Below are positions 2 through 60,040 of a stretch of DNA of 64,000 bases, piece by piece (within the stretch, counting starts at the first letter, position 1; the number at the start of each line of letters is the position of its first letter). The position numbers were made by a program, and so were the translations under genes. Source of the stretch: Candidatus Latescibacterota bacterium (GTDB lineage: Bacteria; Latescibacterota; UBA2968; UBA8231); assembly GCA_965203355.1 (NCBI GenBank), contig OZ241889.1, positions 672,001 to 736,000 on the forward strand, in the 5' to 3' direction. The notes below the pieces were generated by a model. The model was not told the DNA's origin and ran no database searches. It saw nothing but the letters and a program-made list of their open reading frames with translations.

Positions 2-1879
2 GGCTCTGTTGCGCCAACCTACTTCAACGGCCAGGAAAACATCCTTTCCAAGCTTCCGTTCTGGTCGCCCTTCAAGTTTCCCACCGACTTGGGCTACGAA
101 GACGGCCTCATTCCGCGAGTTTGGCGCGCAGCCAACGGCTTCTATTGGTTCACGGCCGGAACCCTGACGACCGAGTGGGTCGATGGCGACAGCTCTTCTT
201 ACAGCCCGCCGGTAGCGCGCGGCATCAATTCGGAGTGGTACACCTTCGACGTGGGGGTCCCAGTGCCCGCCAACGTAGTCGGATTCTACACGCCGCCGCA
301 CGGTTTTCGCGCCGACGGCAGACTCCTCCGCGACGACATCTTCAAGGCGTTTGAAGTCTCAATCGCCGAAGAGTTCGACCCGGTCCTCAACCTCGAAAAC
401 AACGACAACGACTATCACCGCTTGGAGACCTTAGTCGCCGATGTGCCGCTCAATTTCGACGCCAATGTCCAGCTTGAATTTCCCAAACAGTACGTGCGTT
501 TCATCCGCCTACAGCGCAAATCCTCCATTGACGACAAAGCCTTTGCCTCGGGCCAAGCCAATGTCCAGCAGGGAACCATAGGCGAGTTCGAGCTCAAAGG
601 CGAGGGGGTTCCCAAGCGAGTGTTTTATCTGTCTAAGATCATCTCCCTCGGCCGCACGGTGAATTTCGGGCGTCTATTCTGGGACGCCACGCCCATGCGA
701 ATGGTCAAAGGGGTGCCCACTCCCGTTGACAACGCCCAAGCCCGACTCGCGATCTCCGTGCGTTCTGGCCGCGACGACGACCCCAACGTCTATCACGAAT
801 TTACCGACACCGGTGCCGAGCGCCCGGTCGTGCGTGCGCGCTTTGAGAAAGAACTCAAGCAACCAGACCAAACTACCCAAGGCCAGATCCAAGAAGGCAA
901 ACCCGGTCTTAGAGCCTCCATCATTTACGACCAAGACAACTGGACCTTCTGGTCTTTTCCCATCGCCGAGCCCGGGCAACCTGCCCCGCTGGAGCGCGGC
1001 AACCACATCCAGGTGAGACTTACCTTCGAGAGCAGTTCTTTCTTCGACTTTGTGCGGCTCGATTCGCTGTGGATTGAGACCGCACCGCCATTGGCCTCGC
1101 AAGTGGTCGGCGAGGTGGCCCGCTTTGACGAGCCAACGCCCGCCGGCAGCCTAACCGAAGTGTACTTAGGCGAGATGACGGACTTTACCTACGACGTGCG
1201 TACCCGGTTCGACGGAGCGAGCCAACCGGGCTTCGATGCCATCCGAATCCGCACAGGCAGCCGCCCCCAGTTCAAACGGCTAGAGATGGGCCAGCCACTC
1301 CAAGTCATAGAGCCGACCGAGGTGATAGAAGCGGCAAGTGAACTAGTAGTGCGCTTGCCCCAGTCGATCACGCGCAGCCGCAACGAACCCGTGCGGCTGG
1401 TTTTCGGCACCGAGGTCTTCATCTTTGCCAACACGTTCGCTGGCGAGGTGTTTGACACAAACGAGGAAAGCCTACCGCAGCAGATTGAGGCCGGTAACGC
1501 CTCCGACGAGGTCAACACCAACAGCCTGCGGGTGTTGGGCGGCGCACAAGATGCCGGGGCACCCATCGAAAACCTAGCTTTTTCAAGCGAGATATTGACC
1601 CCCAACGGCGACGGTGCCAACGATGTGCTGGCCATCAGTTATACCTTGTTTCGCCTGCCCGGCCCGGTGCCCGTGGCCCTCAACATCTACGACTTGCGCG
1701 GCGGCCAGGTCGGCGGCCTCGAACTCGGAATGCAGGGAGCCGGACCGCAAACCGTGCATTGGGATGGCCGCGACGCGGACGGAGAACTGTTGGTACCCGG
1801 TCTATATGTGATGGAAATCGCCCTCAAGGCAGAACTTAAAACCTTCCGCCAGCAGCAGCCGCTGGGCTTGGCTTATTAG
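2..1879 (+). CDS. Large putative secreted/surface protein with C-terminal FlgD-Ig-like domain; 5'-partial
   Basis: Frame is open from base 2, so the start lies upstream of the window. C-terminus has TPNGDGAND...IYDLRG...WDGRDADG.LLVPGLY, typical of FlgD_ig/CTD-like domains. Confidence 0.7.
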   Translation, partial: GSVAPTYFNGQENILSKLPFWSPFKFPTDLGYEDGLIPRVWRAANGFYWFTAGTLTTEWVDGDSSSYSPPVARGINSEWYTFDVGVPVPANVVGFYTPPHGFRADGRLLRDDIFKAFEVSIAEEFDPVLNLENNDNDYHRLETLVADVPLNFDANVQLEFPKQYVRFIRLQRKSSIDDKAFASGQANVQQGTIGEFELKGEGVPKRVFYLSKIISLGRTVNFGRLFWDATPMRMVKGVPTPVDNAQARLAISVRSGRDDDPNVYHEFTDTGAERPVVRARFEKELKQPDQTTQGQIQEGKPGLRASIIYDQDNWTFWSFPIAEPGQPAPLERGNHIQVRLTFESSSFFDFVRLDSLWIETAPPLASQVVGEVARFDEPTPAGSLTEVYLGEMTDFTYDVRTRFDGASQPGFDAIRIRTGSRPQFKRLEMGQPLQVIEPTEVIEAASELVVRLPQSITRSRNEPVRLVFGTEVFIFANTFAGEVFDTNEESLPQQIEAGNASDEVNTNSLRVLGGAQDAGAPIENLAFSSEILTPNGDGANDVLAISYTLFRLPGPVPVALNIYDLRGGQVGGLELGMQGAGPQTVHWDGRDADGELLVPGLYVMEIALKAELKTFRQQQPLGLAY

Positions 1880-1913
1880 GCCCGGCCGCGCTTGGTCCAA
1901 ACGCGCCTATTCA

Positions 1914-2501
1914 ATGTCTGCCAGAGATGTAAGCCGCTTGGGCGAAGATATTGTATTTGAAGAGCATCTCCGGGGGCGCACTTTCACCTTCCACTCCACT
2001 TGGGGCCTTTTCAATCCCAAACGCATTGACCCGGGTACGCGGATGCTCATTGACCACATCAAAGCCGGACCGGCCGATTGCTGTCTCGACTTAGGGTGCG
2101 GATATGGTCCAATCGGCTTGGCGTTGGGCCACCTCTGCCCCGAGGGCGAGGTCCATCTGATCGACAAGGACTTCGTCGCGGTCGAGTACGCGGCGCAAAA
2201 CGCTGCACACAACGGGCTGACCAATTGTCTCGCCTATTTGAGTAATGCCTTCAGCCATGTGCCCGCCCACGTGCGCTTTGACACTATTGCCTCCAACTTA
2301 CCCGCAAAAACAGGCAACGAACTCCTGACGATCATCATGCACGACGCCCGCACTCGCCTCAAGCCGGGCGGGCACTTGTGGGTCGTCACCATTGCCGGGC
2401 TAAAGGAGTACGTCAAGCGCAATTTCAAGGAAGTCTTCGGCAACTACAAAAAGATCAAACAGCGGGGGACCTACCTATTGTCTTTGGCGATTAAAGAGTA
2501 G
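1914..2501 (+). CDS. Class I SAM-dependent methyltransferase, RsmC/MTS family
   Basis: GLF..IDPGT, LDLGCGYGPIG and SNLP motifs. Confidence 0.85.
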   Translation: MSARDVSRLGEDIVFEEHLRGRTFTFHSTWGLFNPKRIDPGTRMLIDHIKAGPADCCLDLGCGYGPIGLALGHLCPEGEVHLIDKDFVAVEYAAQNAAHNGLTNCLAYLSNAFSHVPAHVRFDTIASNLPAKTGNELLTIIMHDARTRLKPGGHLWVVTIAGLKEYVKRNFKEVFGNYKKIKQRGTYLLSLAIKE

Positions 2502-2522
2502 AGGTTCGGCTGCTTGGAGCAA

Positions 2523-3575
2523 CTATAGCAACGCCTCGTTCACCTCGACGCCAAATCCCGGGCCTTCGGGCAGTACTAAGTGACCTTCCTGCGGTTGCGG
2601 CTCACCTAACCACAGCTTATCATGCACCGCGTCGCGCCGGCCCATGACCATCTCGGCCAAGTTGTCTCCATAGCCAGCCGCCAAAAAGTGCAGACCCCAA
2701 ATCTCGCCGCCGCGGTGAGGCACCACCGGGATGCCGTAGGCTTGGGCGAGCTTGGCAATGCGCAGCGTCGCCGTCAGGCCGCCGCACCAAGTGACGTCCG
2801 GTTGCCACAAGTCCAGTGCCTGCATCTTAGCAATATGACCGAAATCCCGCGCAGTGAATTCGTGTTCGCCGCCAGCCAACAGAATTGGATGGATCTGCGG
2901 ACGCAACGCCGCCAAGCCATCTAGGTCATCGGGCAACAGCACGTCTTCAAACCAGTATATGTTGAATGGCGCGAGTTGCTGCGCCACGGCCACGGCAAAG
3001 CCGGGCGACCACGACATGTACGCGTCGATCATCAAGAGCGCGTCTTCGCCCAAGGTCTGGCGCGCCCCTTCGGCCCACTCAAGTACGCGCACTGCATCAG
3101 CAGCCTCGCTTCCTTGCCGCGTCTGCGAAGACTTGTGGGCACCAAAGCCCAAGTCGCGATACCAAGCGCAATCCGGGCCTGTAGCGTAGGCCCGCACCTC
3201 GTCCCGTTGCCGACCGCCCAACAAGTCGCAGACAGACTTCTTCTCGGCCCGGCCCAAGACATCCCACAGTGCCAAGTCCACGCCGCTGATAGCCATGACG
3301 GCGATCCCGCTGCGGCCGTAGGGCAAGCTGGCCTTGTACTGGTCGTCCCAGAGCCGAGCGATAGCTTCAATGCCGTTGATGCTGCGCCCCACCAGCAACT
3401 CGCGCAGGTGACGGTTAATCACCTCCACGGCCGCAATTCCACCGCCCCCCGCTCCCCAGCCGCTGATGCCGACATCCGTATTGATGCGCACGGCCACCTG
3501 CCAGAAGTGCCGACGCCAAGCCGCGGGCGCGCCGCGATAGCGGGGATAAACTGCTTGCACTCCGGTTATTTTCAT
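2523..3575 (-). CDS. Mandelate racemase/enolase-superfamily acid-sugar dehydratase (L-rhamnonate dehydratase-like)
   Basis: YGRSGIAVMAISGVDLALWD, metal ligands in MIDAY/WFED/GGEHE, QPDVTWCGG, PGFGVE. Confidence 0.85.
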   Translation of the reverse strand: MKITGVQAVYPRYRGAPAAWRRHFWQVAVRINTDVGISGWGAGGGGIAAVEVINRHLRELLVGRSINGIEAIARLWDDQYKASLPYGRSGIAVMAISGVDLALWDVLGRAEKKSVCDLLGGRQRDEVRAYATGPDCAWYRDLGFGAHKSSQTRQGSEAADAVRVLEWAEGARQTLGEDALLMIDAYMSWSPGFAVAVAQQLAPFNIYWFEDVLLPDDLDGLAALRPQIHPILLAGGEHEFTARDFGHIAKMQALDLWQPDVTWCGGLTATLRIAKLAQAYGIPVVPHRGGEIWGLHFLAAGYGDNLAEMVMGRRDAVHDKLWLGEPQPQEGHLVLPEGPGFGVEVNEALL

Positions 3576-3696
3576 GCGTAACCCCTTGTGTACATTTTGT
3601 TTTTATCGCCTCCCTTTTTGGTAATCGGTCGCTTCGTATAGTATTATTTATATATCAAACACCTTGTATTCTATATCCCCATTATAGGAACAGTCC

Positions 3697-4785
3697 ATGT
3701 CCTTAGGACGCAACCTGAAAGAGCTGCGACAGAAACAATCGCTCAACCAGAAAGACCTCTCAGATCGCTCCGGCGTCTCCCAGGCCACCATCTCCCGCAT
3801 TGAAACCGGCCGCGTACGCCAGCCAGGCTCGTCGGCCCTAAAAAGTTTAGCTGACGCCCTCGGCGTTTCGACCGACTCCCTAATAGACGACACGGCGCAC
3901 TTGGCCCGAGTCCACAAAGACCGTTTGCATCAAATCGCCGAGACCCTCAACGCCTTTGTCATCCACGAAAACAGACGTTTGCACTTCATCGGCCAGACCT
4001 TGGCCGGCCTATTGGGTTATCGCGAGGAAGAACTGCTTGCCAAAGACGGCGTTGAACTACTGTTCGCTCCCCAGTCCCGTCCTGAAGCTCGGTACATGGT
4101 CGCCAGCGGTTCGTCCAATACCTATGAAGTACTCATGGTGCGCCGGGACGGCAGCTTTCTTCCCGTCGAGATCACCAACGTCAATATCAGCGCAAAAGAG
4201 CACTTGGTCATTGTGCGCGACATCACCACTCACTGCTGCCAGCAAGGGGCCTTTCGCGTTTTGCAGGCTGGTTGCGACGCCAACAAGATGCGCGATCTAG
4301 GCAAGGTCGTGCGCATCCTCGGCGACGAATTAGAGGCGATGGGCGTCCAATTCGAGGCGGTTGACCTACAGATCATAGACGAACAAAGAAACCGCTTGGC
4401 TTGCTATCGCGCCTATTCCGCAGCACGCGGTTATCGCTCCTTGCAAACCGAGGTAAATCTCCAAGAATCGCTCGATCACTTTGCCTCTTTGCAGCGATTG
4501 GTTAGCTGTAGGAACCGGGACAAGGTCTGGGAGCGCGAGGCCGACGAGGATTTTCGCCAGATGACCCAAGAAATTTTCTCGGACTCGATGTATCGTCCCG
4601 GACTGCTGATCGACGTGTCTTTTGCCCAAGGGATGTTAGGGCTGGGGTTGCCCATGGGTAGCCCGAAGCCCCCCGAACAGCTACCGACCATCTTGCCCGA
4701 GTTCGCCCGCTCTATCTCTTTGGTCGTCAAGCGGCTGTTTGAACTCCAATCGCTGCGCGAAAAGCTGGACTCTACTGATGCTTAA
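3697..4785 (+). CDS. XRE-family HTH regulator with PAS domain and C-terminal GAF-like region
   Basis: N-terminal LKELR...GVSQATISRIETG HTH; PAS signature LLGY.EEEL...RRDGS.LPVE...VRDIT; C-terminal domain call is tentative. Confidence 0.75.
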   Translation: MSLGRNLKELRQKQSLNQKDLSDRSGVSQATISRIETGRVRQPGSSALKSLADALGVSTDSLIDDTAHLARVHKDRLHQIAETLNAFVIHENRRLHFIGQTLAGLLGYREEELLAKDGVELLFAPQSRPEARYMVASGSSNTYEVLMVRRDGSFLPVEITNVNISAKEHLVIVRDITTHCCQQGAFRVLQAGCDANKMRDLGKVVRILGDELEAMGVQFEAVDLQIIDEQRNRLACYRAYSAARGYRSLQTEVNLQESLDHFASLQRLVSCRNRDKVWEREADEDFRQMTQEIFSDSMYRPGLLIDVSFAQGMLGLGLPMGSPKPPEQLPTILPEFARSISLVVKRLFELQSLREKLDSTDA

Positions 4786-4837
4786 CCGAACGATTTTTTC
4801 ACGCCATCGAGACTTTCGCGCCCGGTAGGGGTCTGCG

Positions 4838-6196
4838 CTATGAACGCGCTTCTTCTGGGCGGACCTTCCGCTGGCCAGAGCCGAGCGGAGCAGCCTCTTT
4901 GATGTGGGGGCGAGTTTCTCCGGCTTCTTCCATGCGTCGCCAGAGCCGTTGCCGCATTACCTGAGCCACCTCTCGGTGTGACTCAAGGCCGACTAGATTG
5001 TTCAGTTCGTAGGGATCAACCTGTAGATCGTAGAGATACTGCTCCTCGTAGTGATCGGCTCCTGCCGCATCTCTTCCTTGCCCGTCTGGAGCATTCACCC
5101 CGTACTTCCACCGATGTGTGCGAACGGCCCGTCCCACTTGGGCCTCGCTGATCTGCACGAAAACCTCTGCGGGCCAATCGGTTTCTCCACCGCGCACAAG
5201 CGGCATGAGCGAGCGGCCCTGCATCTGCTCGGGGATTTCCAAGCCAGCCGCGTCCAAAAGTGTTGGCGGCAGATCGATTAGGCTGATCAGTTCTTGCAAT
5301 TGGCCGCCGTGAAAACCGGGTCCGGTCAAAACGGTCGGTACGCGGATCGAGCTTTCGTGGCAAGAGCGCTTGTACTCGTTGTTGCGCGTCTTGAAGTGAC
5401 AGCCGTGATCCGACGTAAAGAGCACGACAGTGTCGTCGGCTAGTGCCAAGCTCTTGAGCGCGTCGTGCAGGCGACCATAGGCTTCATCGAGCCGCTTGAC
5501 CATCCCGTAATAGCCGCCTAAGTGCTGGTGAGTCGAGCCGCCTAATGCCGCTAGATCGGGCGGGACCCAGCCTCCGGTATAGGCTTCCCGGTAGCCGTCA
5601 GGGGGTGGATAGTCGTCCAAGTGGTTCTGGTGATGGGGTTCAATGTAGGAGACAAACAGAAAAAAAGGACGATCTTGGCGTGCATCCACGTAGCGGATTG
5701 CGGCGTCCGTGACCGCGTCCACTCGATAACCGGGTAGGCGGACGGGTTGTTCGTCATGGTCGTAGAGGACTGTGCTGTAGGCGTCGGAAGTAAACTCGAG
5801 CACATTAGACGCCAACCAGTACTGATAGCCAAAGCGATCCGCGGCCGGCACTGGACCAGTGGTCCCTCGGTCGTGGAGATGCCACTTGCCGATATAGCCT
5901 GTGTCGTAGCCTGCCGCGGCAAAATAGTGGGCGAGGGTTTGGCTGTCTGTAGGCAGGGGAATGCCGTTGCGGTAACAACCTGTCGTCGTAGCGTAGAGAC
6001 CTGTTTGCAGACAAGAGCGCGCCGGGCCGCAGACGGGTTGGCACGTAAAGGAATGAGCCGCGTGGGTGTACTCGCGGGCGAGGCGATCGAGATTCGGCGT
6101 AAGGCCCATTGGATTGCCGTGTAGCCCGGTTGTGTCCCAGCGCTGTTGATCGGTAAAAAAGACGATGACGTTTGGTTTTTTGCGGCCTTCAGTCAT
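4838..6196 (-). CDS. Formylglycine-dependent sulfatase, no signal peptide
   Basis: PNVIVFFTDQQR, CGPAR (CxPxR), GKWH, TSDHG, LYDLQVDPYE. Confidence 0.92.
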   Translation of the reverse strand: MTEGRKKPNVIVFFTDQQRWDTTGLHGNPMGLTPNLDRLAREYTHAAHSFTCQPVCGPARSCLQTGLYATTTGCYRNGIPLPTDSQTLAHYFAAAGYDTGYIGKWHLHDRGTTGPVPAADRFGYQYWLASNVLEFTSDAYSTVLYDHDEQPVRLPGYRVDAVTDAAIRYVDARQDRPFFLFVSYIEPHHQNHLDDYPPPDGYREAYTGGWVPPDLAALGGSTHQHLGGYYGMVKRLDEAYGRLHDALKSLALADDTVVLFTSDHGCHFKTRNNEYKRSCHESSIRVPTVLTGPGFHGGQLQELISLIDLPPTLLDAAGLEIPEQMQGRSLMPLVRGGETDWPAEVFVQISEAQVGRAVRTHRWKYGVNAPDGQGRDAAGADHYEEQYLYDLQVDPYELNNLVGLESHREVAQVMRQRLWRRMEEAGETRPHIKEAAPLGSGQRKVRPEEARS

Positions 6197-6220
6197 TTTA
6201 CACGGCCCCTCCTTTTTCGC

Positions 6221-7543
6221 CTAGGGATCAAGCGTCTGATTCGCTACGCGCTGTAATTCCTCTGCCACCGATCCGACGTCCCCACCTTCAATGGCCTCTA
6301 TCATGGCCTCTTGAATCAACTTCCGCACTTGTTCATAGCCGACTATCGTCGGCTCCGACTTTCCGTAGTCCAACATGCCAAACGCCACTCCATAGTGCGG
6401 ATTTTCCGCAAAATAGCTTTCTAACTCCCGCGCCGTACTTTTGCGCACCGGAAAGTAGTTGCTTACCCGCACCCATCGCGCTTGCTGCTCGGGGGCCGTA
6501 AACCACTTGAGGAAAAGCCACGCCGCTAGCTGCTTTGCGGGCGGACCGGCGCAGATCGACACACTGGCCCCGTACACGTCGACAACCGGCCGCACCCCCG
6601 TCTGCGGCGGATGGGTTACTCCCCACTCAAAAGCCAACCCAGCGTCCTCAATGCCGCTCTTGTAAAAGGGCAATCCAGAGGAAGAATCCTGCGAGAAGAG
6701 GATATTACCAGTGACGAACTCGTTTAGCTCGGCATCTCGTTCACCGGCGATGTCTATTGCGCCGTCTCGTGCTAGTTCCTGCAACAGTTCTAGGACCGCT
6801 ATAACTTCGGGCGAATCCAGCGCATAGGCCGTGCCGGTTGCATCTACTAGGTCGCCGCCGCGGCTAAAGACCATCGCAGCGAATCGGCTGGCGTCAACAT
6901 CGAGCAAAAAACCCAAGCTGTGCACGGGGTTTTCGTTTTTGCTAAAGGGTTGCTCTTTGGCTTGGCGGCACATCGCGGCAAAATCGTCCCACGTCGCCGG
7001 TGGGGCGTCGTAGCCCAACTCGCGTAGCCAATCGACATTGTAGTAGAGCAGCTCCATTGAGCGATTCGGCGGGAAACCAACCTGCACTCCGCCGATATTG
7101 TCCTGCGCCAGAAACGCTTGGACATAGTCGCTCCTTTCTGCTGGAGACAAGCCCCACTTGGGCGAATCCATATAAGGCGCTATATCCACTATGCCGTCGG
7201 CTTGGTAGTAGGCGAGGGCTTGATTTTGGTAGGCGACGACCAAGCTAGCGGCCAGCGAGCCGCTCTGGATACCCACGTTCATCTTGTTGTAGATATCCCC
7301 ATAGCGCCCCATGTACTCGCCGCGAACCTCAATTCCAGAGCGATTGGTCTGGTTAAAGTCGGCAATCAACTTTTGCAGGGCATCTTCGCGCGGGCCGGTG
7401 TGTTGGTACCAAAAGACGATTTTCTGGCCTTGCGGGTCGAGGGCTTCGATATTGGTCTGCTGCTTGTATACGGCCTCCTGCTGGCCGCCACAGGCCCACA
7501 AAAAAGCACACCAAACCAACGTCATCGCACTTTTCGGTTTCAT
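6221..7543 (-). CDS. Carbohydrate ABC transporter substrate-binding lipoprotein (UgpB-like)
   Basis: Lipobox LWAC; LLYYNVD and AAWLFLKWF motifs of CUT1 binding proteins. Confidence 0.85.
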   Translation of the reverse strand: MKPKSAMTLVWCAFLWACGGQQEAVYKQQTNIEALDPQGQKIVFWYQHTGPREDALQKLIADFNQTNRSGIEVRGEYMGRYGDIYNKMNVGIQSGSLAASLVVAYQNQALAYYQADGIVDIAPYMDSPKWGLSPAERSDYVQAFLAQDNIGGVQVGFPPNRSMELLYYNVDWLRELGYDAPPATWDDFAAMCRQAKEQPFSKNENPVHSLGFLLDVDASRFAAMVFSRGGDLVDATGTAYALDSPEVIAVLELLQELARDGAIDIAGERDAELNEFVTGNILFSQDSSSGLPFYKSGIEDAGLAFEWGVTHPPQTGVRPVVDVYGASVSICAGPPAKQLAAWLFLKWFTAPEQQARWVRVSNYFPVRKSTARELESYFAENPHYGVAFGMLDYGKSEPTIVGYEQVRKLIQEAMIEAIEGGDVGSVAEELQRVANQTLDP

Positions 7544-9636: not shown

Positions 9637-9712
9637 TGGCTGCCCCCCTAGGGCTCGAACCTAGAACCTCCTGATCCAGAGTCAGGCGCACTTCCAATTG
9701 TGCTAGAGGGCA
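9637..9712 (-). tRNA. tRNA-Gln(CTG)
   Basis: Cloverleaf; anticodon arm CCTGA-CT-CTG-GA-TCAGG; GGTTCGAG T-loop; encoded CCA. Confidence 0.95.
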
Positions 9713-9724
9713 ACTAACCCAAAT

Positions 9725-9818
<94 letters not shown>

Positions 9819-9896
9819 GCGACCATTGCAAAATAAGTTTTTGACGTGTTCCCACCGCTAAAAGAGGTGGGATTGTAGCGGCATCAAATTGGTAAA

Positions 9897-9983
9897 TGGC
9901 GGAGGGTGAGGGATTCGAACCCTCAAGGGCGTGAGCCCGGCGATTTTCAAGACCGCTGCCTTACCAATTAGGTCTAACCCTCC
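9897..9983 (-). tRNA. tRNA-Ser(TGA)
   Basis: Anticodon arm GCGGT-CT-TGA-AA-ATCGC; long variable arm; G73-CCA. Confidence 0.95.
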
Positions 9984-27355: not shown

Positions 27356-27973
27356 ATGGTTCTGATGGAAGTCAAAGGGGTCTTAAGCAGCAAATCTCTA
27401 TCTTTATATCCCGAAGTAGTACTCAAAGAAGTCGAAGGCAACTCTTATCTGCACATTGTCATCGGCCGCTTTGAGGCAGCAGCTATTTCCACAGCCCATA
27501 GCAAGCAGCAACCTGTACGCCCCATCAGCTACGATCTAGCCCATCAGATTCTCGCCCACGTTGACGCCCGGGTAATCCGGGTCGAAATTACGGACTTTAA
27601 CTCATGTGAGAGAACGTACTACGCCGAGATTCACCTCGTTGACGACGAGGGCAACACTCATACATTCGACGCACGTCCCAGCGATGCCATTGCCCTAGCC
27701 CTGCGCTTTGGCGCACCGATCTACGCTGCCGTCAAGGTACTCGAAGACGTGGGATGTGTTCATTCTGACGACGATGAATGGGTTACGGCTGAAGTTGATG
27801 CTATCACCAAATCCGTGGCCACACCGAGGAAAGAGCACCCTACTATCGCCACATCAGCCGTCAATCAGCTAGAACAACTCAAAAGACGCATGCACCAAGC
27901 GATTGCCGAAGAAATCTACGAGGAGGCGGCACGGCTTCGCGACGAGATTAGTCGCCTCAATGGAGATGACTAA
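27356..27973 (+). CDS. Bifunctional nuclease (DUF151) with C-terminal UVR motif, paralog 1
   Basis: IVIGRFEAAAI, RPISYDL, DARPSDAIALALR; C-terminal AIAEEIYEEAARLRDEI. Confidence 0.88.
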   Translation: MVLMEVKGVLSSKSLSLYPEVVLKEVEGNSYLHIVIGRFEAAAISTAHSKQQPVRPISYDLAHQILAHVDARVIRVEITDFNSCERTYYAEIHLVDDEGNTHTFDARPSDAIALALRFGAPIYAAVKVLEDVGCVHSDDDEWVTAEVDAITKSVATPRKEHPTIATSAVNQLEQLKRRMHQAIAEEIYEEAARLRDEISRLNGDD

Positions 27974-28668
27974 TGGGTACTACCTCTTTAGTCGAGATGA
28001 CCGTGGTCAAGGTGAGCCCCTACCTGCGCGAGGACAGACCCTTGGTATGGTTGAGCGAGAAGAACGGTAACCTCCCGCGGCTCCTGCCCATTCCCATCGG
28101 CGAATTTGAAGCGGCCGCCATTAGGATGCGGCTGGAAAACGATAGACCCATACGCCCAATTTCTTACGACTTGCTCGCCTCTATGGTAAATTCCCTTGCG
28201 ATACGCGTACGCCAAGTTGTCATCCACAACGTGCGCCGCTCCATTTACTACGCAAGAGTCGTTATTGAGAAGAATCACACGATAAAAGACGTCGACGCAC
28301 GTCCCAGCGATGCCATCGCTCTGGCCTTGCGCACGGGTTCGCCAATCTACGTTGCTCCTGCGTTGCTCAACGAGGTGGGCTTGGAGCCTTTGGAAACCGA
28401 CTTGGATGTTGGACACACCCTGAACCGCTTGTACGAACTTGAAGCGCAGATTTCCATGCCGCTCAATGCAGAAGCTGACTCGGGCAAGGTCCGCTCGCCG
28501 AAGCGGAACGCCGAAGCGGCTAACGCTCAACACCCGCCGAATGAAGAGAAAGACGAGCTCGGCCTGCTTCAATATCGGCTACAGCAGGCCGTCATATGCG
28601 AAGAATACGAAGAAGCGGCTCGTCTGCGCGACGCTATTGAATCGCTAGCTAAAAAAACCAAGCGTTGA
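27973..28668 (+). CDS. Bifunctional nuclease (DUF151) with C-terminal UVR motif, paralog 2
   Basis: LPIPIGEFEAAAI, RPISYDL, DARPSDAIALALR; C-terminal EEYEEAARLRDAI; TAATG coupling to paralog 1. Confidence 0.88.
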   Translation: MGTTSLVEMTVVKVSPYLREDRPLVWLSEKNGNLPRLLPIPIGEFEAAAIRMRLENDRPIRPISYDLLASMVNSLAIRVRQVVIHNVRRSIYYARVVIEKNHTIKDVDARPSDAIALALRTGSPIYVAPALLNEVGLEPLETDLDVGHTLNRLYELEAQISMPLNAEADSGKVRSPKRNAEAANAQHPPNEEKDELGLLQYRLQQAVICEEYEEAARLRDAIESLAKKTKR

Positions 28669-28748
28669 TCCCAATCCGGGTGGACGCAGACCTAACACCT
28701 ACCGAGTAACTGAAGTTGCCCAAGATACTGATTTGTGTGCTGCATACA

Positions 28749-29198
28749 ATGGCCCTACAACTATTTGTTTGTCTCGCCCTGCTCCTCGGCTGCAATAGCG
28801 AAGACATAGACCAACGTTTCTCGCATCCGGCCCAGACCTTCCAGACCTACAGGTCCGCGTTAGAAAACAGCGACTTTGACCTGCTTTGGGAATGTTTCAG
28901 TTCTTCGCAAGTGGCGGGCGAAGACCGTCAGAGCTTTGTCGAACGCTGGCGTCTTTTGCCGCCGGCCGAGATCAAGGCTCAACTGCGGCGAGAAATCGCC
29001 GAAGAGCGCATCATCAACGAGCGCATCGGTTACTTGCTCTTCGATTCCTCTACGCTAGGCGATGAGCGAACATCGCCATTTTTTTATTTTCTTCGCGATT
29101 CCAGTGGTTGGAAAATCACTTCCCACCTAGACAGCACCTTCCACCAAGAGTTAGAGCAAGCCATTGAGCGCGGCGAGTACAAACTGCCCGACTTCTAA
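28749..29198 (+). CDS. Hypothetical lipoprotein (possibly NTF2-like)
   Basis: Signal MALQLFVCLALLLG-C; FF..RDSSGWKI ending resembles NTF2-like lipoproteins; start uncertain (28716 or 28749). Confidence 0.6.
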   Translation: MALQLFVCLALLLGCNSEDIDQRFSHPAQTFQTYRSALENSDFDLLWECFSSSQVAGEDRQSFVERWRLLPPAEIKAQLRREIAEERIINERIGYLLFDSSTLGDERTSPFFYFLRDSSGWKITSHLDSTFHQELEQAIERGEYKLPDF

Positions 29199-29213: not shown

Positions 29214-29747
29214 TCATCTAGGCGGCTCTAAGTTCCAAGTCCCGATAATGCCCATTATCATATCCCACTGCTTGTCGTCCATCGCGTCTACCAGAGCGAG
29301 CAGGCGTAACACATCGCGATCCTTCTGCTTATTGCGCGCCCGGGCAACGGCCTCCAACCACGGTTGGTCCCCGAGCAGAGCCAAAATTTCTGGCTTCGAT
29401 AATATCCCCAAGAGGGCTGGGTCCAACGGCTCTTCGCTAGACAGGAGCTTGTTGATGACTGGGTCCGACAGCGAGCGCATCATCTTGCCATAGAGCGCAC
29501 GTCCTTCCTCCGAACTCGCCTTGGCCTCGTAAGCAGCAATCAACGCTCTATTAGAGTCGAGTTCCAAAACCTCGGCCAACTTGAGACACACTTCGTCGGA
29601 AGGAACCTTCTCCCCTTTCTCAATTTGTCCTATATAGGTTGCCCATACGCCCTTGGGCCTTCGCGCCGTTACAAGTTGTTCGGCCAATCCCTGCTGGCTT
29701 AGGTGGGCTTGTAGCCGGGCCTCCTTGATCATTTCTGCAAACTGCAT
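29214..29747 (-). CDS. XRE-family transcriptional regulator
   Basis: MQFAEMIKEAR...LSQQGLA...TYIGQIEKGEKVPS...KLAEVL; start set at the ATG after AAAGGGA. Confidence 0.85.
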   Translation of the reverse strand: MQFAEMIKEARLQAHLSQQGLAEQLVTARRPKGVWATYIGQIEKGEKVPSDEVCLKLAEVLELDSNRALIAAYEAKASSEEGRALYGKMMRSLSDPVINKLLSSEEPLDPALLGILSKPEILALLGDQPWLEAVARARNKQKDRDVLRLLALVDAMDDKQWDMIMGIIGTWNLEPPR

Positions 29748-29854
29748 TTGCGGTCCCTTTGAATTGTTTTCAACCATCTTCTCTGTCAAAGATACGCACA
29801 CACTTGTAAGTGTGCAAGACTCCATTGTCACTTTCTTTGGGTGTGTTTTTTCGC

Positions 29855-29883
29855 TTGACAACACAATCTAGCGTGTGTATTTT
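29855..29883 (+). promoter_or_regulatory. Sigma70 promoter driving the ncRNA, with an operator-like spacer
   Basis: TTGACA-N17-TATTTT; the spacer ACACAATCTAGCGTGTG resembles ACACACTTGTAAGTGTG at 29798-29814. Confidence 0.7.
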
Positions 29884-29890
29884 TGTTTTT

Positions 29891-30093
29891 GAGTAGAGTG
29901 TGGCGGTCCGCCAGCGTGGATAAAGTCTTGATACGCGAAGCTCGGATTTCCCTTTTCGGGCCGTTGAGATCTTCAAAACTACCTCCCCACACCGCCTCGT
30001 TTGAGGATCTCACTTGTGTTTCAAGATTACACCTGTTCGGCCGCCATACTCTTTATCTTATAAGCAGCCCATTTTTAGATGGGCTGCTTTTTT
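29891..30093 (+). ncRNA. Structured non-coding RNA of unknown family (6S-like rod or novel sRNA)
   Basis: Closing stem 29895-29908/30039-30052; inner helices GTCTTGA/TCAAGAT and ACGCGA/TTGTGT; side hairpin 29940-29961; 13-bp stem 29965-29977/30000-30012 with a 22-nt C-rich loop; G-U pairs favour the + strand; own promoter and terminator. Confidence 0.75.
30062..30093 (+). terminator. Rho-independent terminator
   Basis: AAGCAGCCCAT-loop-ATGGGCTGCTT followed by a T-tract. Confidence 0.88.
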
Positions 30094-30127
30094 ATTTTTA
30101 GCCTTTACGCCAAATCCTTAATACGCC

Positions 30128-31243
30128 ATGCACATTTGTATGGTCGCCTTCACCGACCTTAATTTCGACTACCGCATCTACCGAGAGGCTACCTCGCTGC
30201 GTCGCGCCGGTCACCAAGTCGTTATTGTCACCTCCTCTTTCAACTCAGCCCCTCTCAAGGGATGGGACGATTTTGAAATCTACCCAATTCCGCTAGACCG
30301 GAGCCACTCGCTGCGTCGCCTCTATCCTTTGTTTTGGCAACGGGCCTACTCTCTTCTCGTCGAGGCCCAGCCGGACGCCTATCACGCCCACGACTTAGAT
30401 TCGCTCTGGCCAGCAGTGCGAGCTGCCCAGCGACTAGCTCGGCCCCTCGTCTATGACGCACATGAATTTTGGACCGAGCAGTCTTCACTGGTCAGCCGAC
30501 CGCTGATGCGGTCCTGCTGGCGTTTGCTGGAGCAGCGGCTGATAAGACGGGTAGATCGCGTCATAACTGTCAGCGGGTCTATCGCCCAATCGCTCATGGA
30601 GCGTTACTGCCTTGACGAGGTCGTCGTTCTGCGCAACTTGCCGCTATTCCGCGATAAGGTCCAAAGCAACCTGATACGCGAAACGCTGGACTTGCCCGAC
30701 GATCTCCCCGTTGTTCTCTACCAAGGAGGATTTCTCACCGAAAACGGCTTGCGCGAGCAAATTGAGGTCGCCGAGGGGCTTGCCGCCGCCCTAGTTCTCA
30801 TTGGGGATGGGCCAAGTGAACAGGCTCTGCGGAACCAAGTTCACGCTACGGGCTTAGAGGACCGGGTCTATTTTATTCCTCGGGTGCCCTTCTACCAACT
30901 TCACAATTACACTTGCTCGGCCGACTTGGGGCTGTGTCTGATCAAAGGCACGGGCAAGAGCTTCTACTACTCTCTGCCCAACAAGCTTTTCGAATACATG
31001 ATGGCCGGGCTACCGGTCTTAGCCAGCAACTTTCCTGAAATGGAGCGCATCGTCCGCGAAACGCATACCGGAGCCACGGTCGATCCAACCAATATAGCAG
31101 CCATTCGAGAGCAAATAGCCGCTTTTTTGGACAGTGCAGCGAAGCGAGAGGAGTGCGCCAAAGCGAGCTTGCAGGCGGCACGACACTATAACTGGGAACG
31201 AGAAGCCGCTCAACTCATCCAGCTTTACGAAACCTTAGCATGA
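30128..31243 (+). CDS. Glycosyltransferase family 4
   Basis: HAHDLD, LVYDAHE, LPNKLFEYMMAGLPV, YNWE. Confidence 0.9.
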   Translation: MHICMVAFTDLNFDYRIYREATSLRRAGHQVVIVTSSFNSAPLKGWDDFEIYPIPLDRSHSLRRLYPLFWQRAYSLLVEAQPDAYHAHDLDSLWPAVRAAQRLARPLVYDAHEFWTEQSSLVSRPLMRSCWRLLEQRLIRRVDRVITVSGSIAQSLMERYCLDEVVVLRNLPLFRDKVQSNLIRETLDLPDDLPVVLYQGGFLTENGLREQIEVAEGLAAALVLIGDGPSEQALRNQVHATGLEDRVYFIPRVPFYQLHNYTCSADLGLCLIKGTGKSFYYSLPNKLFEYMMAGLPVLASNFPEMERIVRETHTGATVDPTNIAAIREQIAAFLDSAAKREECAKASLQAARHYNWEREAAQLIQLYETLA

Positions 31244-32169
31244 ATGCCCCGCTGACGCTTAGCGTCGTAATACCTACTTATGACGAGCCTGAGCGCCTCG
31301 AAGCAGCACTCAAGAGCCTGTCGCAGCAGGATTACCCCCACGAAGCGACCCAAATTATCGTAGTGGACGATGCCTCCCCCCATTTGGACGCCGAGCGGCT
31401 ACATGCGGCGGGCGCGCCTCTACAGTTGCAGCTACTCCGCAACGAACAGAATCAGGGACGCGCTCGGGCGCGCAACACAGCCCTGCGGGTCGCCAGCGGC
31501 GATATCGTCGTCTTTCTCGACAGCGATATGACCGTCGGTGCCAATTTTCTCCGCGCCCATGCCCAACGGCATCAAAACCACGCGGAAGCCGTTTTTGTCG
31601 GCAACATCCGCTTCGCCCGTGAGATTCCCGCTACATCCCTGACTCGCTATCTCGAAGAGAGAGGGGTCCATCGGGTTGATGCGGATAAGACCATACCTTT
31701 CAAGTGCTTCGTCACTGGCAACTCCTCGGTGCGTCGGTCTTCCCTGATCCGCGTAGGGTTTTTCGACGAGGACCTCACGGCTTATGGCGGCGAAGATCTA
31801 GAATTAGGGTATCGCCTACACTTGGCCGGTATTCCGCTTTACTATGCCCCTGAAGCTCTGTCGCACCACAATCACTTGCGTTCGTTGGAGCCGCTCTGCC
31901 ACCTAATGCAGATCTACGGCAGCAAGTCAATCCCGGTCCTCTTAAAAAAGCATCCCGAGCTTGACGCCGTACTCCGGTTGGACTTTATCAGAGCCGCTGC
32001 TTTTTCTCCGCGACGGCTCGCGCTCCAGCTAGCCTTGTTGTCGCCGATTCACTACCCAATTCGCTGGGTGACCCGCTGGCTTGTGAAAACTTATGTCCCG
32101 GATCTGTTTTTTAATTATTTATTTTGGTCTAGCCGCACACGGGGTTACATGTGCGCTCTAAACGAATGA
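31240..32169 (+). CDS. Glycosyltransferase family 2
   Basis: SVVIPTY, IIVVDDAS, ARN, FLDSD, FDE...GGEDLELGYRL. Confidence 0.9.
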   Translation: MNAPLTLSVVIPTYDEPERLEAALKSLSQQDYPHEATQIIVVDDASPHLDAERLHAAGAPLQLQLLRNEQNQGRARARNTALRVASGDIVVFLDSDMTVGANFLRAHAQRHQNHAEAVFVGNIRFAREIPATSLTRYLEERGVHRVDADKTIPFKCFVTGNSSVRRSSLIRVGFFDEDLTAYGGEDLELGYRLHLAGIPLYYAPEALSHHNHLRSLEPLCHLMQIYGSKSIPVLLKKHPELDAVLRLDFIRAAAFSPRRLALQLALLSPIHYPIRWVTRWLVKTYVPDLFFNYLFWSSRTRGYMCALNE

Positions 32170-33005
32170 AAAACAACGACATGCACACACACTATCCCCG
32201 CTTCTCCCAAGTTCTCCGCGTAGTGCTACCTGCGCTCCTGCTGGCCCACTTCATAGTTTGGCCCATCGTCGGCCTTTTATCCCTACATGCTGGTATTATT
32301 GCCGCCGAATGTACCCTTTTGTGGTTTGTTGTTCTTTATATTCGCCGTCATCGCTTAATTGCCGAAGATCTACTTCTGTTCAACGCCACACCGGCTGCGA
32401 CCCTGTTGCTGACAATCCCGGTGACTATTTGCTGTAGCCTCGCAATCGCCGAACTCGACTTGTATCTGGCCTATCTTCTCGGCCTGATAGACCTGTCCAC
32501 GCCGCTGTCTTTTCAGAAAAACCTGTTAGAGATTCAGATTGTCCGCGAATGGGTGGAGATCCCAAAGGGACTGGTAACGCTAGTGCTAGTACCTGTGTTT
32601 TGCGAAGATCCCCTCTTCCGCGGACTTATATTCACGAGTCTGTGCGCCCATTATGGGCCGCGCTGGGCACTTGGCGGTTCGGCCTTGCTGTTTGCCATTT
32701 CTCACTTCAACCCTTGGCAAATGATCGCCCTCTTCCTCTTTGGGCTCTTCCTCGGCGCTTTAGTCTACTGGACTCACAGCATCTATCCTGCCATGCTCGC
32801 CCACGCGGTCAATAATTTGACTTCGATAATTGGGATCAACTTGCGCACTTACTTAGGGCTGGATGGCCTCGGTCCCTCCCAACACCTACCCATGCCTTTG
32901 GTCCTGCTCGTCGGCCTACTCCTGCTCGCCGGCCTCCTGCTTCTCAGCCGCCGCCCCGCCATTATGCCGCTGTTGACTAAGAGGGAATTCGCTTCGCCCG
33001 ATTGA
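32166..33005 (+). CDS. CPBP (Abi/CAAX) intramembrane metalloprotease family protein
   Basis: EDPLFRG, FAISH, AHAVNN motifs; ATGA overlap with the GT2 gene. Confidence 0.82.
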   Translation: MKNNDMHTHYPRFSQVLRVVLPALLLAHFIVWPIVGLLSLHAGIIAAECTLLWFVVLYIRRHRLIAEDLLLFNATPAATLLLTIPVTICCSLAIAELDLYLAYLLGLIDLSTPLSFQKNLLEIQIVREWVEIPKGLVTLVLVPVFCEDPLFRGLIFTSLCAHYGPRWALGGSALLFAISHFNPWQMIALFLFGLFLGALVYWTHSIYPAMLAHAVNNLTSIIGINLRTYLGLDGLGPSQHLPMPLVLLVGLLLLAGLLLLSRRPAIMPLLTKREFASPD

Positions 33006-59941: not shown

Positions 59942-60040
59942 GGGAGCGGATGTGTGCCTGGTGGCTGCCGCGGACTTCAAATCCGTTGCGGCGTAGCGAG
60001 AGTTGCGCTGGGTGGGTTCGATTCCCACACGTTCCCGCCA
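59942..60040 (+). tRNA. selC: tRNA-Sec (anticodon TCA)
   Basis: Anticodon arm GCGGA-CT-TCA-AA-TCCGT; extended D arm; long variable arm; GGGTTCGATTCCC; G73-CCA. Confidence 0.93.

Follow-up and report, generated by a model that had tools for sequence, protein, structure and literature searches.

We analysed a window of 64,000 nucleotides (nt) from a Candidatus Latescibacterota bacterium (contig OZ241889.1 of assembly GCA_965203355.1, positions 672,001 to 736,000) and, within it, a structured RNA gene at window positions 29891-30093. The gene lies on the forward (+) strand between a divergent gene for an XRE-family helix-turn-helix protein and an operon encoding two glycosyltransferases, GT4 and GT2, and a CAAX-type protease (Table 1). 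An earlier note, made from the letters of this DNA alone, had described a promoter and an intrinsic terminator bracketing an RNA without a credible open reading frame (ORF), and had proposed either a new, XRE-controlled family of trans-acting small RNAs or a very divergent 6S RNA. Scans located both the promoter and the terminator, and transcription probably starts near position 29890. The RNA is real and belongs to a new small-RNA family, as the earlier note had suspected: it has no match in Rfam, its helices covary strongly, and it occurs in a single copy per genome.

Table 1. Features at and around the RNA gene, in window coordinates (bp, base pairs; aa, amino acids; MFE, minimum free energy).
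Feature	Position	Strand	Description and basis
RNA promoter, sigma-70-like	29855-29883	+	TTGACA-17-TATTTT; consensus scan, 10/12 consensus matches
Inverted repeat in and beside the promoter spacer	29861-29865 / 29874-29878		ACACA / TGTGT
Predicted primary transcript, ~205 nt	29891-30097	+	Structured core plus terminator; fold and signals
Rod, 5' strand	29895-29938	+	Long and interrupted, contains invariant GAGUGUGGCGG; MFE structure, alignment columns
Hairpin 1	29940-29961	+	7 bp; conserved C-rich loop UUUCCCUU at 29947-29954
Hairpin 2	29965-30012	+	13-bp stem; 22-nt loop ACUACCUCCCCACACCGCCUCG at 29978-29999, proposed pairing seed
Rod, 3' strand	30014-30052	+	Contains invariant CGCCA(C/U)ACUC; MFE structure, alignment
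Intrinsic terminator	30062-30097	+	12-bp G+C-rich hairpin at 30062-30089, then T-run; signal scan
Downstream operon	30128-33005	+	GT4 30128-31243, GT2 31240-32169, CAAX-type protease 32151-33005; Pfam
XRE-family helix-turn-helix gene	29214-29747	-	Divergent; start at 29747, longer starts possible; Pfam HTH_3, HTH_31
Palindrome, candidate XRE operator	29799-29814	.	CACACTT-GT-AAGTGTG; between XRE start and RNA promoter; inverted-repeat scan
Two tandem bifunctional-nuclease-domain genes	27356-28668	+	First also with UVR motif; upstream of the RNA in nearly all loci
160-aa gene	28716-29198		No Pfam match; conserved alongside the nuclease-domain genes upstream of the RNA

The + strand of the RNA gene folds with an MFE of -89.1 kcal/mol, against -50.9 +/- 4.5 kcal/mol in 200 shuffled sequences, none of which equalled it (z = -8.54). 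The overall shape is an interrupted rod that ends in a three-way junction. The - strand folds less well, at -75.9 kcal/mol (z = -5.79). The MFE structure holds exactly the helices that had been listed by eye in the earlier note, including the three-way junction and the 13-bp hairpin, and its 68 pairs include 8 G-U pairs, in agreement with the "about eight" counted there. We assign the RNA to the + strand because of these G-U pairs, the position of the terminator, and the scores of a covariance model, which were 174-176 bits on the + strand and 13.5 bits on the - strand. An alternative fold between the C-rich loop and the 5' arm, also suggested in the earlier note, came down to two separate 6-nt matches that are not collinear.

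Mechanically called ORFs over the region reach 72 aa on the + strand (29883-30101) and 61 and 68 aa on the - strand. The homologues agree with the view that no credible ORF is present: single-base insertions or deletions separate close relatives (L008, L013, L019, and L011), the longest open stretch ranges from 37 to 79 codons over 50 distinct homologues, and substitutions track base pairing. Nothing in these sequences suggests a protein-coding function at 29891-30093.

Homologues were gathered beside orthologues of the XRE gene and checked for covariation, as the earlier note had advised, and both steps spoke for the RNA. The starting point was 41 loci fetched with the divergent XRE protein, from assemblies of Candidatus Latescibacterota and a few labelled Gemmatimonadota. 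In 35 of these loci nhmmer found the RNA, encoded upstream of XRE and on the other strand, and a covariance model added one more (L036) to give 36 of 41; no RNA match was obtained in L034, L035, L038, L039, and L041. A first covariance model rested on an RNAalifold structure, which contained a spurious small hairpin, and was replaced by one built on the MFE structure of the window. Covariance-model searches returned exactly one sense-strand match in each of five complete Latescibacterota genomes (G001-G005, reached through L004, L012, L030, L040, and L016) and one match each in 43 of 150 genomes sampled across the phylum. The RNA is a clade-specific, single-copy gene of one branch of Latescibacterota.

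The fold is conserved across this family. In a structure-blind MAFFT alignment of 32 sequences, 94% of the cells were paired on the MFE structure of the window, versus 37-47% when the partners were slid out of register, and 17 of 53 pairs had compensatory double changes, a level reached by none of 500 shuffles. An alignment fitted to the covariance model (73 hits, 50 of them distinct), which favours the structure by construction, gave compensatory changes at 33 of 52 pairs and 92.6% of cells paired, versus 38-50% with slid partners; rod helices 1-5 carried such changes in this alignment. Hairpin 1 was paired in 95.7% of cells across the 50 distinct sequences, and its loop, CCCUUU, was invariant in the 32 sequences. 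The stem of hairpin 2 was paired in 97.2% of cells, with 9 of 12 pairs compensatory, and this covarying stem holds open a loop that is invariant throughout the main clade. Sequence is conserved beyond pairing at three places: the terminal helix GUGUGGCG/CGCCACAC, the CCCUUU loop, and the loop of hairpin 2.

The signals that flank the core are conserved as well. In 48 of the 50 distinct homologues, all except L033 and L036, the core is followed by a terminator-like hairpin and a T-run; the stem of this hairpin covaries and changes freely, whereas the core stays constant. On the other side, further lineages also have the TTGACAACACA promoter box before the RNA. A TTGACA box lies upstream in all inspected lineages, in most of them about 95 nt further from the core than in the window. 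The resulting ~95-nt 5' extension, which the window's own lineage lacks, holds a second CACAC..GTGTG palindrome (L024, L053, L059, L027, L031, L065, L068, L030, L040, and others). As a separate observation, two related genomes have a tandem duplication of the 3' arm of the terminal helix, GGCCGCCACA (L016:2687-2852 and L017:2687-2852, both on the - strand), and the 5' arm therefore has two alternative closing partners there.

Comparison with Rfam 15 at gathering thresholds gave five tRNA-type hits over the whole window, none of them at the RNA locus. When 29700-30250 was searched at E <= 10 with lax filters against 4227 Rfam models, we found no 6S RNA, signal recognition particle (SRP) RNA, or other structured family. 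The matches that did appear were weak, driven by the terminator, and well short of their cut-offs (PyrG leader, STnc430, tsr26, and others); these include the only small-RNA matches at E <= 10, so that the RNA belongs to no described aptamer, leader, or small-RNA family in Rfam, RsaE included. The Rfam scan that the earlier note had recommended thus leaves the novelty of the RNA standing. An identity as SRP RNA was rejected: the locus gave no match, and each of the five complete genomes has its own SRP RNA at another place, scoring above the cut-off. Open-access full text yielded no paper that joins Latescibacter* with non-coding RNA, 6S RNA, or small RNA.

The suggestion of a very divergent 6S RNA was not supported by the comparison. 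No 6S model matched at E <= 10, the RF00013 gathering score of 46.4 bits was not reached anywhere in the window, and a three-way junction takes the place of the two-sided bubble of 6S. At the junction a hairpin occupies the 5' side and the 3' side measures only 1-4 nt, which leaves no central bubble open on both sides, and the far end bears a 22-nt apical loop, not a long terminal stem. The RNA could still be a functional analogue of 6S, or some other housekeeping RNA that sequesters RNA polymerase or another abundant protein through its invariant terminal helix and loop, with the mini-RNA described below acting as a release RNA. Several traits would suit such a role: a length of ~205 nt, one copy per complete genome, and core contigs of high depth in two of four metatranscriptome runs (depth being a weak measure), to which the sequence-level conservation of the terminal helix adds a feature that suggests protein recognition. 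The slot for 6S also looks empty, as none of the five complete genomes has an RF00013 match at E <= 10; because the same search succeeded in only half of its control genomes (7 of 14), it may well have missed a canonical 6S. The lineage either lacks 6S RNA or has one that has diverged beyond the reach of the model. With no 6S or 6S-like family among the matches, the differences in shape, and a presence in 43 of 150 sampled genomes that is narrow for a housekeeping RNA, we consider a 6S-like role improbable.

The loop of hairpin 2 has a conserved counterpart elsewhere in the genome. Over 17-19 nt it is complementary to a site in a second, short element of ~55 nt, a unit consisting of a promoter, the site, a hairpin, and a T-run. 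Outside the RNA gene, all five complete genomes have the complement of the loop once, inside such a unit upstream of zwf or tal. The unit begins with a sigma-70-like promoter, followed after about 10-16 nt by CGAG(G/A)CGGUGUGGG..., an adjoining hairpin, and the T-run; it lies directly upstream of zwf or the transaldolase gene tal and on the strand of that gene (Pfam G6PD and TAL_FSA). We inspected 23 units (unit loci L087-L093, L095, L119, L121, and L127-L140), of which 12 precede zwf and 11 precede tal; for the units of G119 and G130, zwf was assigned from a start shared with G067. An exact 18-nt pattern of the site occurs in 33 of the 150 sampled genomes, 29 of which are among the 43 RNA-positive ones, and its context was inspected in 17 of the 33. 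Such a conserved complementary partner fits the trans-pairing role that the earlier note had proposed for the C-rich loop.

In one case, loop and site also change together. The loop of G003 and G004 reads CCGUCUCG and their site CGAGACGG; in the other genomes the two read CCGCCUCG and CGAGGCGG. Three single changes, in the loop of G087, in the site of G060, and at the first base of the site of G117, each preserve a G-U pair. The lineages that bear the unit are exactly those in which the loop is invariant; it varies in those where no unit was found. The hairpin of the unit itself covaries in 5 of 14 pairs, and eight unit loci gave no Rfam match at E <= 1. In G067, G119, G130, and G139, a separate TTTACC-17-TATATT box lies between the terminator of the unit and zwf, and the unit may therefore be a tiny RNA gene in these four genomes. 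Hits with 1-3 mismatches in G065, G090, G102, G117, G081, and G083 (L120, L122-L126, L141, and L142) looked like coding sequence and were dropped, as were further coding-like hits in G081, G083, and G104 (L094 and L096-L105). Separately, the pattern CGAGGCGGTGCGGG(A/C) was in excess in two genomes, with 24+16 matches in G087 and 12+12 in G104 versus 7+12 and 7+11 for the reversed control; the three matches inspected were all coding-like, and the excess may reflect codon or peptide repeat bias.

The neighbourhood of the RNA is conserved too. Searches with the neighbouring proteins (tblastn) recovered a block of the two bifunctional-nuclease genes, the 160-aa gene, the XRE gene if present, the RNA, GT4, GT2, and the CAAX-type protease. 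GT4-GT2 lies directly downstream of the RNA on the same strand in nearly all loci, including ten that have no detectable XRE gene (L072, L074, L076-L081, L083, and L084). The constant neighbour of the RNA is thus the glycosyltransferase operon, a tight link that the earlier note had overlooked. From the core to the GT4 start codon the median distance is 76 nt (range, 58-276 nt; located in 43 of 50 homologues), and only ~30 nt separate the terminator from the GT4 start. Two genomes depart from this arrangement. In G060, a promoter-like box and a different first gene come after the RNA and its terminator. G004 carries an insertion-sequence remnant of ~1.6 kb between the RNA and GT4, and the RNA is intact. 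The remnant is a degenerate IS3-type element (L086:4400-5950, between terminator and GT4), with HTH_21 and rve fragments interrupted by stops, and in the same genome most of the XRE side has given way to a fragment of a DDE transposase.

The XRE gene is a less constant companion. All 41 distinct loci that bear XRE have palindromes of the form ACAC-N(3-12)-GTGT in the 200 nt before the core, versus 2 of 9 loci without it; the window has one between the XRE start and the RNA promoter and one across the promoter spacer. Control of the RNA promoter by XRE, as put forward in the earlier note, is therefore plausible where XRE is present. XRE lies outside the core system because the ten loci mentioned above keep the RNA without it, and to that extent the claim of an XRE-controlled family has to be narrowed. 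The invariant ends of the RNA (29895-29908, GAGTGTGG; 30039-30052, CCA(C/T)ACTC) resemble the putative half-sites of an XRE operator, CACACT and AGTGTG, and these operator-like ends are kept even in genomes without XRE.

We propose that the RNA is a new small RNA that pairs in trans and at the same time serves as leader of the glycosyltransferase operon, a reading to which we give a probability of roughly 55%. A stable structured RNA, made up of a ~155-nt core and the terminator, would be transcribed from its own sigma-70-like promoter, and in lineages that bear XRE this promoter would probably be regulated by the XRE protein through the ACAC..GTGT palindromes. Most transcripts would stop at the intrinsic terminator, and the terminated product would accumulate. 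Its invariant C-rich loop of 22 nt would then pair in trans in the cell, over 17-19 nt, with the G-rich 5' segment of the unit at zwf or tal-zwf. The level of the RNA would thereby be tied to the expression or fate of the zwf/tal leader or mini-RNA, whether by activation, repression, or sponging. The RNA transcript would also be an operon leader because the glycosyltransferase operon starts ~30 nt after the terminator, and the operon would be reached by read-through as part of the same transcript. A more far-reaching possibility, which we hold to be doubtful, is that two operon leaders, the 200-nt rod RNA and the ~55-nt zwf/tal mini-leader, each of them terminated shortly before its operon, pair in trans over 17-19 nt and so couple both operons reciprocally, at the level of read-through or RNA fate, without a dedicated protein. 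In a bolder version, by analogy with the product RNAs of 6S, the rod RNA would sequester a protein through its invariant terminal helix and the mini-RNA would release it.

Several observations weigh against a trans-pairing small RNA that is also a leader, and some of them are equally at home with its rivals. The predicted duplexes of loop and site are strong, between -34 and -42 kcal/mol in all 19 genome pairs computed, but these energies are circular because the partner sites were found by complementarity in the first place. When the five complete genomes were searched for the 17-mer complement of the loop with up to 3 mismatches, it was not enriched over a reversed-pattern control; the one site stood out because its context is conserved, not by a genome-wide count. 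The double compensatory change is a sole event, common to two related genomes (G003 and G004), and in G065 and G090 an A-A mismatch interrupts the duplex at its centre. In the predicted fold of the unit, a small 5' hairpin takes up part of the site. Nine RNA-positive genomes yielded no unit (G071, G081, G082, G083, G095, G096, G103, G122, and G145). Seven of these are divergent (G071, G081, G082, G083, G095, G103, and G122) and have a tal-zwf operon with no unit upstream of tal, and no other site was found in them; patterns made from the loops of divergent genomes matched just the RNA gene and coding-like sites. Conversely, G130, G139, G129, and G141, all fragmented assemblies, have the site and no RNA match.

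On abundance, the expression data are divided. We compared four metatranscriptome runs (X1, X2, X3, and X7) as assembled contigs, out of sixteen RNA-labelled runs that share 5-14% of the words in a 1.5-kb region surrounding the RNA. The short X1 contigs that stay within 29925-30033 reach depths of 1200-6900, apart from one duplicate at 25, compared with 33.6 and 13.9 for the long contigs over XRE and GT4. In X7, a core contig has a depth of 183 versus 11.9 and 3.2-4.7 in the flanks. X2 and X3 have depths of 20.6 and 9.4 throughout, with no excess over the RNA. These depths are a hint that the RNA is highly abundant and not a measurement, because contig depth is a poor measure of expression and sums all strains that have the conserved core.

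Another adverse point is that a motif and its reverse complement are an identical site in double-stranded DNA, so the motif of 15-18 nt shared by loop and unit could be the operator of one transcription factor, and the two RNAs would never meet. The position of the site in the unit, ~10-30 nt after the promoter, is a common one for a repressor, and the change in G003 and G004 alters both sites alike, as a shared DNA-binding protein would have it. The motif is not palindromic, however, and in the RNA gene it coincides exactly with the unpaired loop of hairpin 2, whose stem covaries at 9 of 12 pairs, which argues for selection at the RNA level. In addition, the three single changes described above make the two DNA sites differ yet keep G-U pairing, and the 3' ends of the site vary (GGGGGGC, GGGAGGC, and GGGGAGG) while each can still pair with CCUCCCC. 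We find a shared DNA operator very improbable.

The main rival is a purely cis-acting role, in which the fold would be a leader of the GT4-GT2-CAAX operon, as a riboswitch-like, protein-binding, or antitermination element that senses a ligand or protein and sets read-through at the terminator. The 200-nt species would then be a terminated by-product, and the loop would be a site for a ligand, a protein, or a tertiary contact. The place of the RNA directly upstream of GT4-GT2, kept in the XRE-less loci as well, is what such a leader predicts. Two further points detract from the trans-pairing reading: the ~30-nt gap between terminator and GT4 leaves little room for a separate promoter and fits a cis leader equally well, and in L033 and L036, where no clear terminator follows, the RNA would belong to the 5' untranslated region. 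Contigs of X1 and X3 span from the interior of the RNA into GT4, which is no proof of a single transcript. On the other hand, no antiterminator pairing between core and terminator was seen by inspection of the window and the alignment, without a dedicated search, and a terminator stem that changes freely beside a constant core is not what such a switch would lead us to expect. The RNA stands before a promoter-like box and a different first gene in G060 and is intact in G004 despite the insertion-sequence remnant before GT4. The very large excess of core depth in X1 would be unusual for a by-product, the conserved complementary unit at zwf/tal would be left unexplained, and no cis-regulatory family in Rfam matches. 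Overall, a role in cis only seems unlikely to us, though clearly less so than a 6S-like role or a DNA operator.

If the RNA does pair in trans, it has parallels among known regulators. RsaE/RoxS of Firmicutes are trans-encoded, base-pairing small RNAs with C-rich seeds. Like them, the Latescibacterota RNA has its own promoter, an intrinsic terminator, and unpaired, conserved C-rich segments that could act as seeds. One report describes RosA as an RNA sponge of RoxS in Firmicutes (PMC8216469). The Latescibacterota RNA resembles the RsaE/RoxS and RosA system in having a conserved G-rich complementary partner and a link to central carbon and redox metabolism, here through zwf and tal. It differs from RsaE/RoxS in other ways: it shows no similarity to them in sequence or model, is about twice as long, and is built on a rod of ~35 bp with a three-way junction. 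Its complementarity extends over 17-19 nt instead of a short seed, its partner site would be 5'-terminal in a leader or mini-RNA and remote from a ribosome-binding site, and it belongs to another phylum.

Two other systems offer partial likenesses. 6S RNA (ssrS, RF00013) is comparable in its length of ~200 nt, its rod-like shape, its single copy, its apparently very high abundance, and the existence of a short complementary RNA. In the Latescibacterota RNA, by contrast, no 6S model matches, a three-way junction is present, the large conserved loop is apical, and the complementary RNA is encoded in the genome, not copied from the RNA; it is also confined to part of one phylum. In Listeria, the transcripts SreA and SreB arise by termination at a riboswitch or leader and have a second role in trans. 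The Latescibacterota RNA is likewise a structured RNA with a terminator directly before an operon, and its terminated product could act on a distant RNA. Unlike SreA/SreB, it matches no known aptamer and has no antiterminator visible by inspection, and its trans partner is conserved over many genomes.

Latescibacterota are uncultured, and for them the RNA would be a clade-defining, structured, and apparently very abundant transcript. Its candidate partner sits at the entry of the pentose-phosphate pathway, and the RNA gene is physically linked to a glycosyltransferase operon of the envelope. The system may show how the leaders of two operons can communicate in trans. A defined RNA-RNA pair can be tested fully in vitro, which is valuable for organisms that cannot be cultured, and the covariance model can be used to annotate Latescibacterota genomes.

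Among other features of the window, the tRNA-type genes include a cluster of three within 350 nt (9640-9983, - strand). A selenocysteine tRNA (59942-60036, + strand; 70.3 bits) suggests that the organism probably makes selenoproteins.

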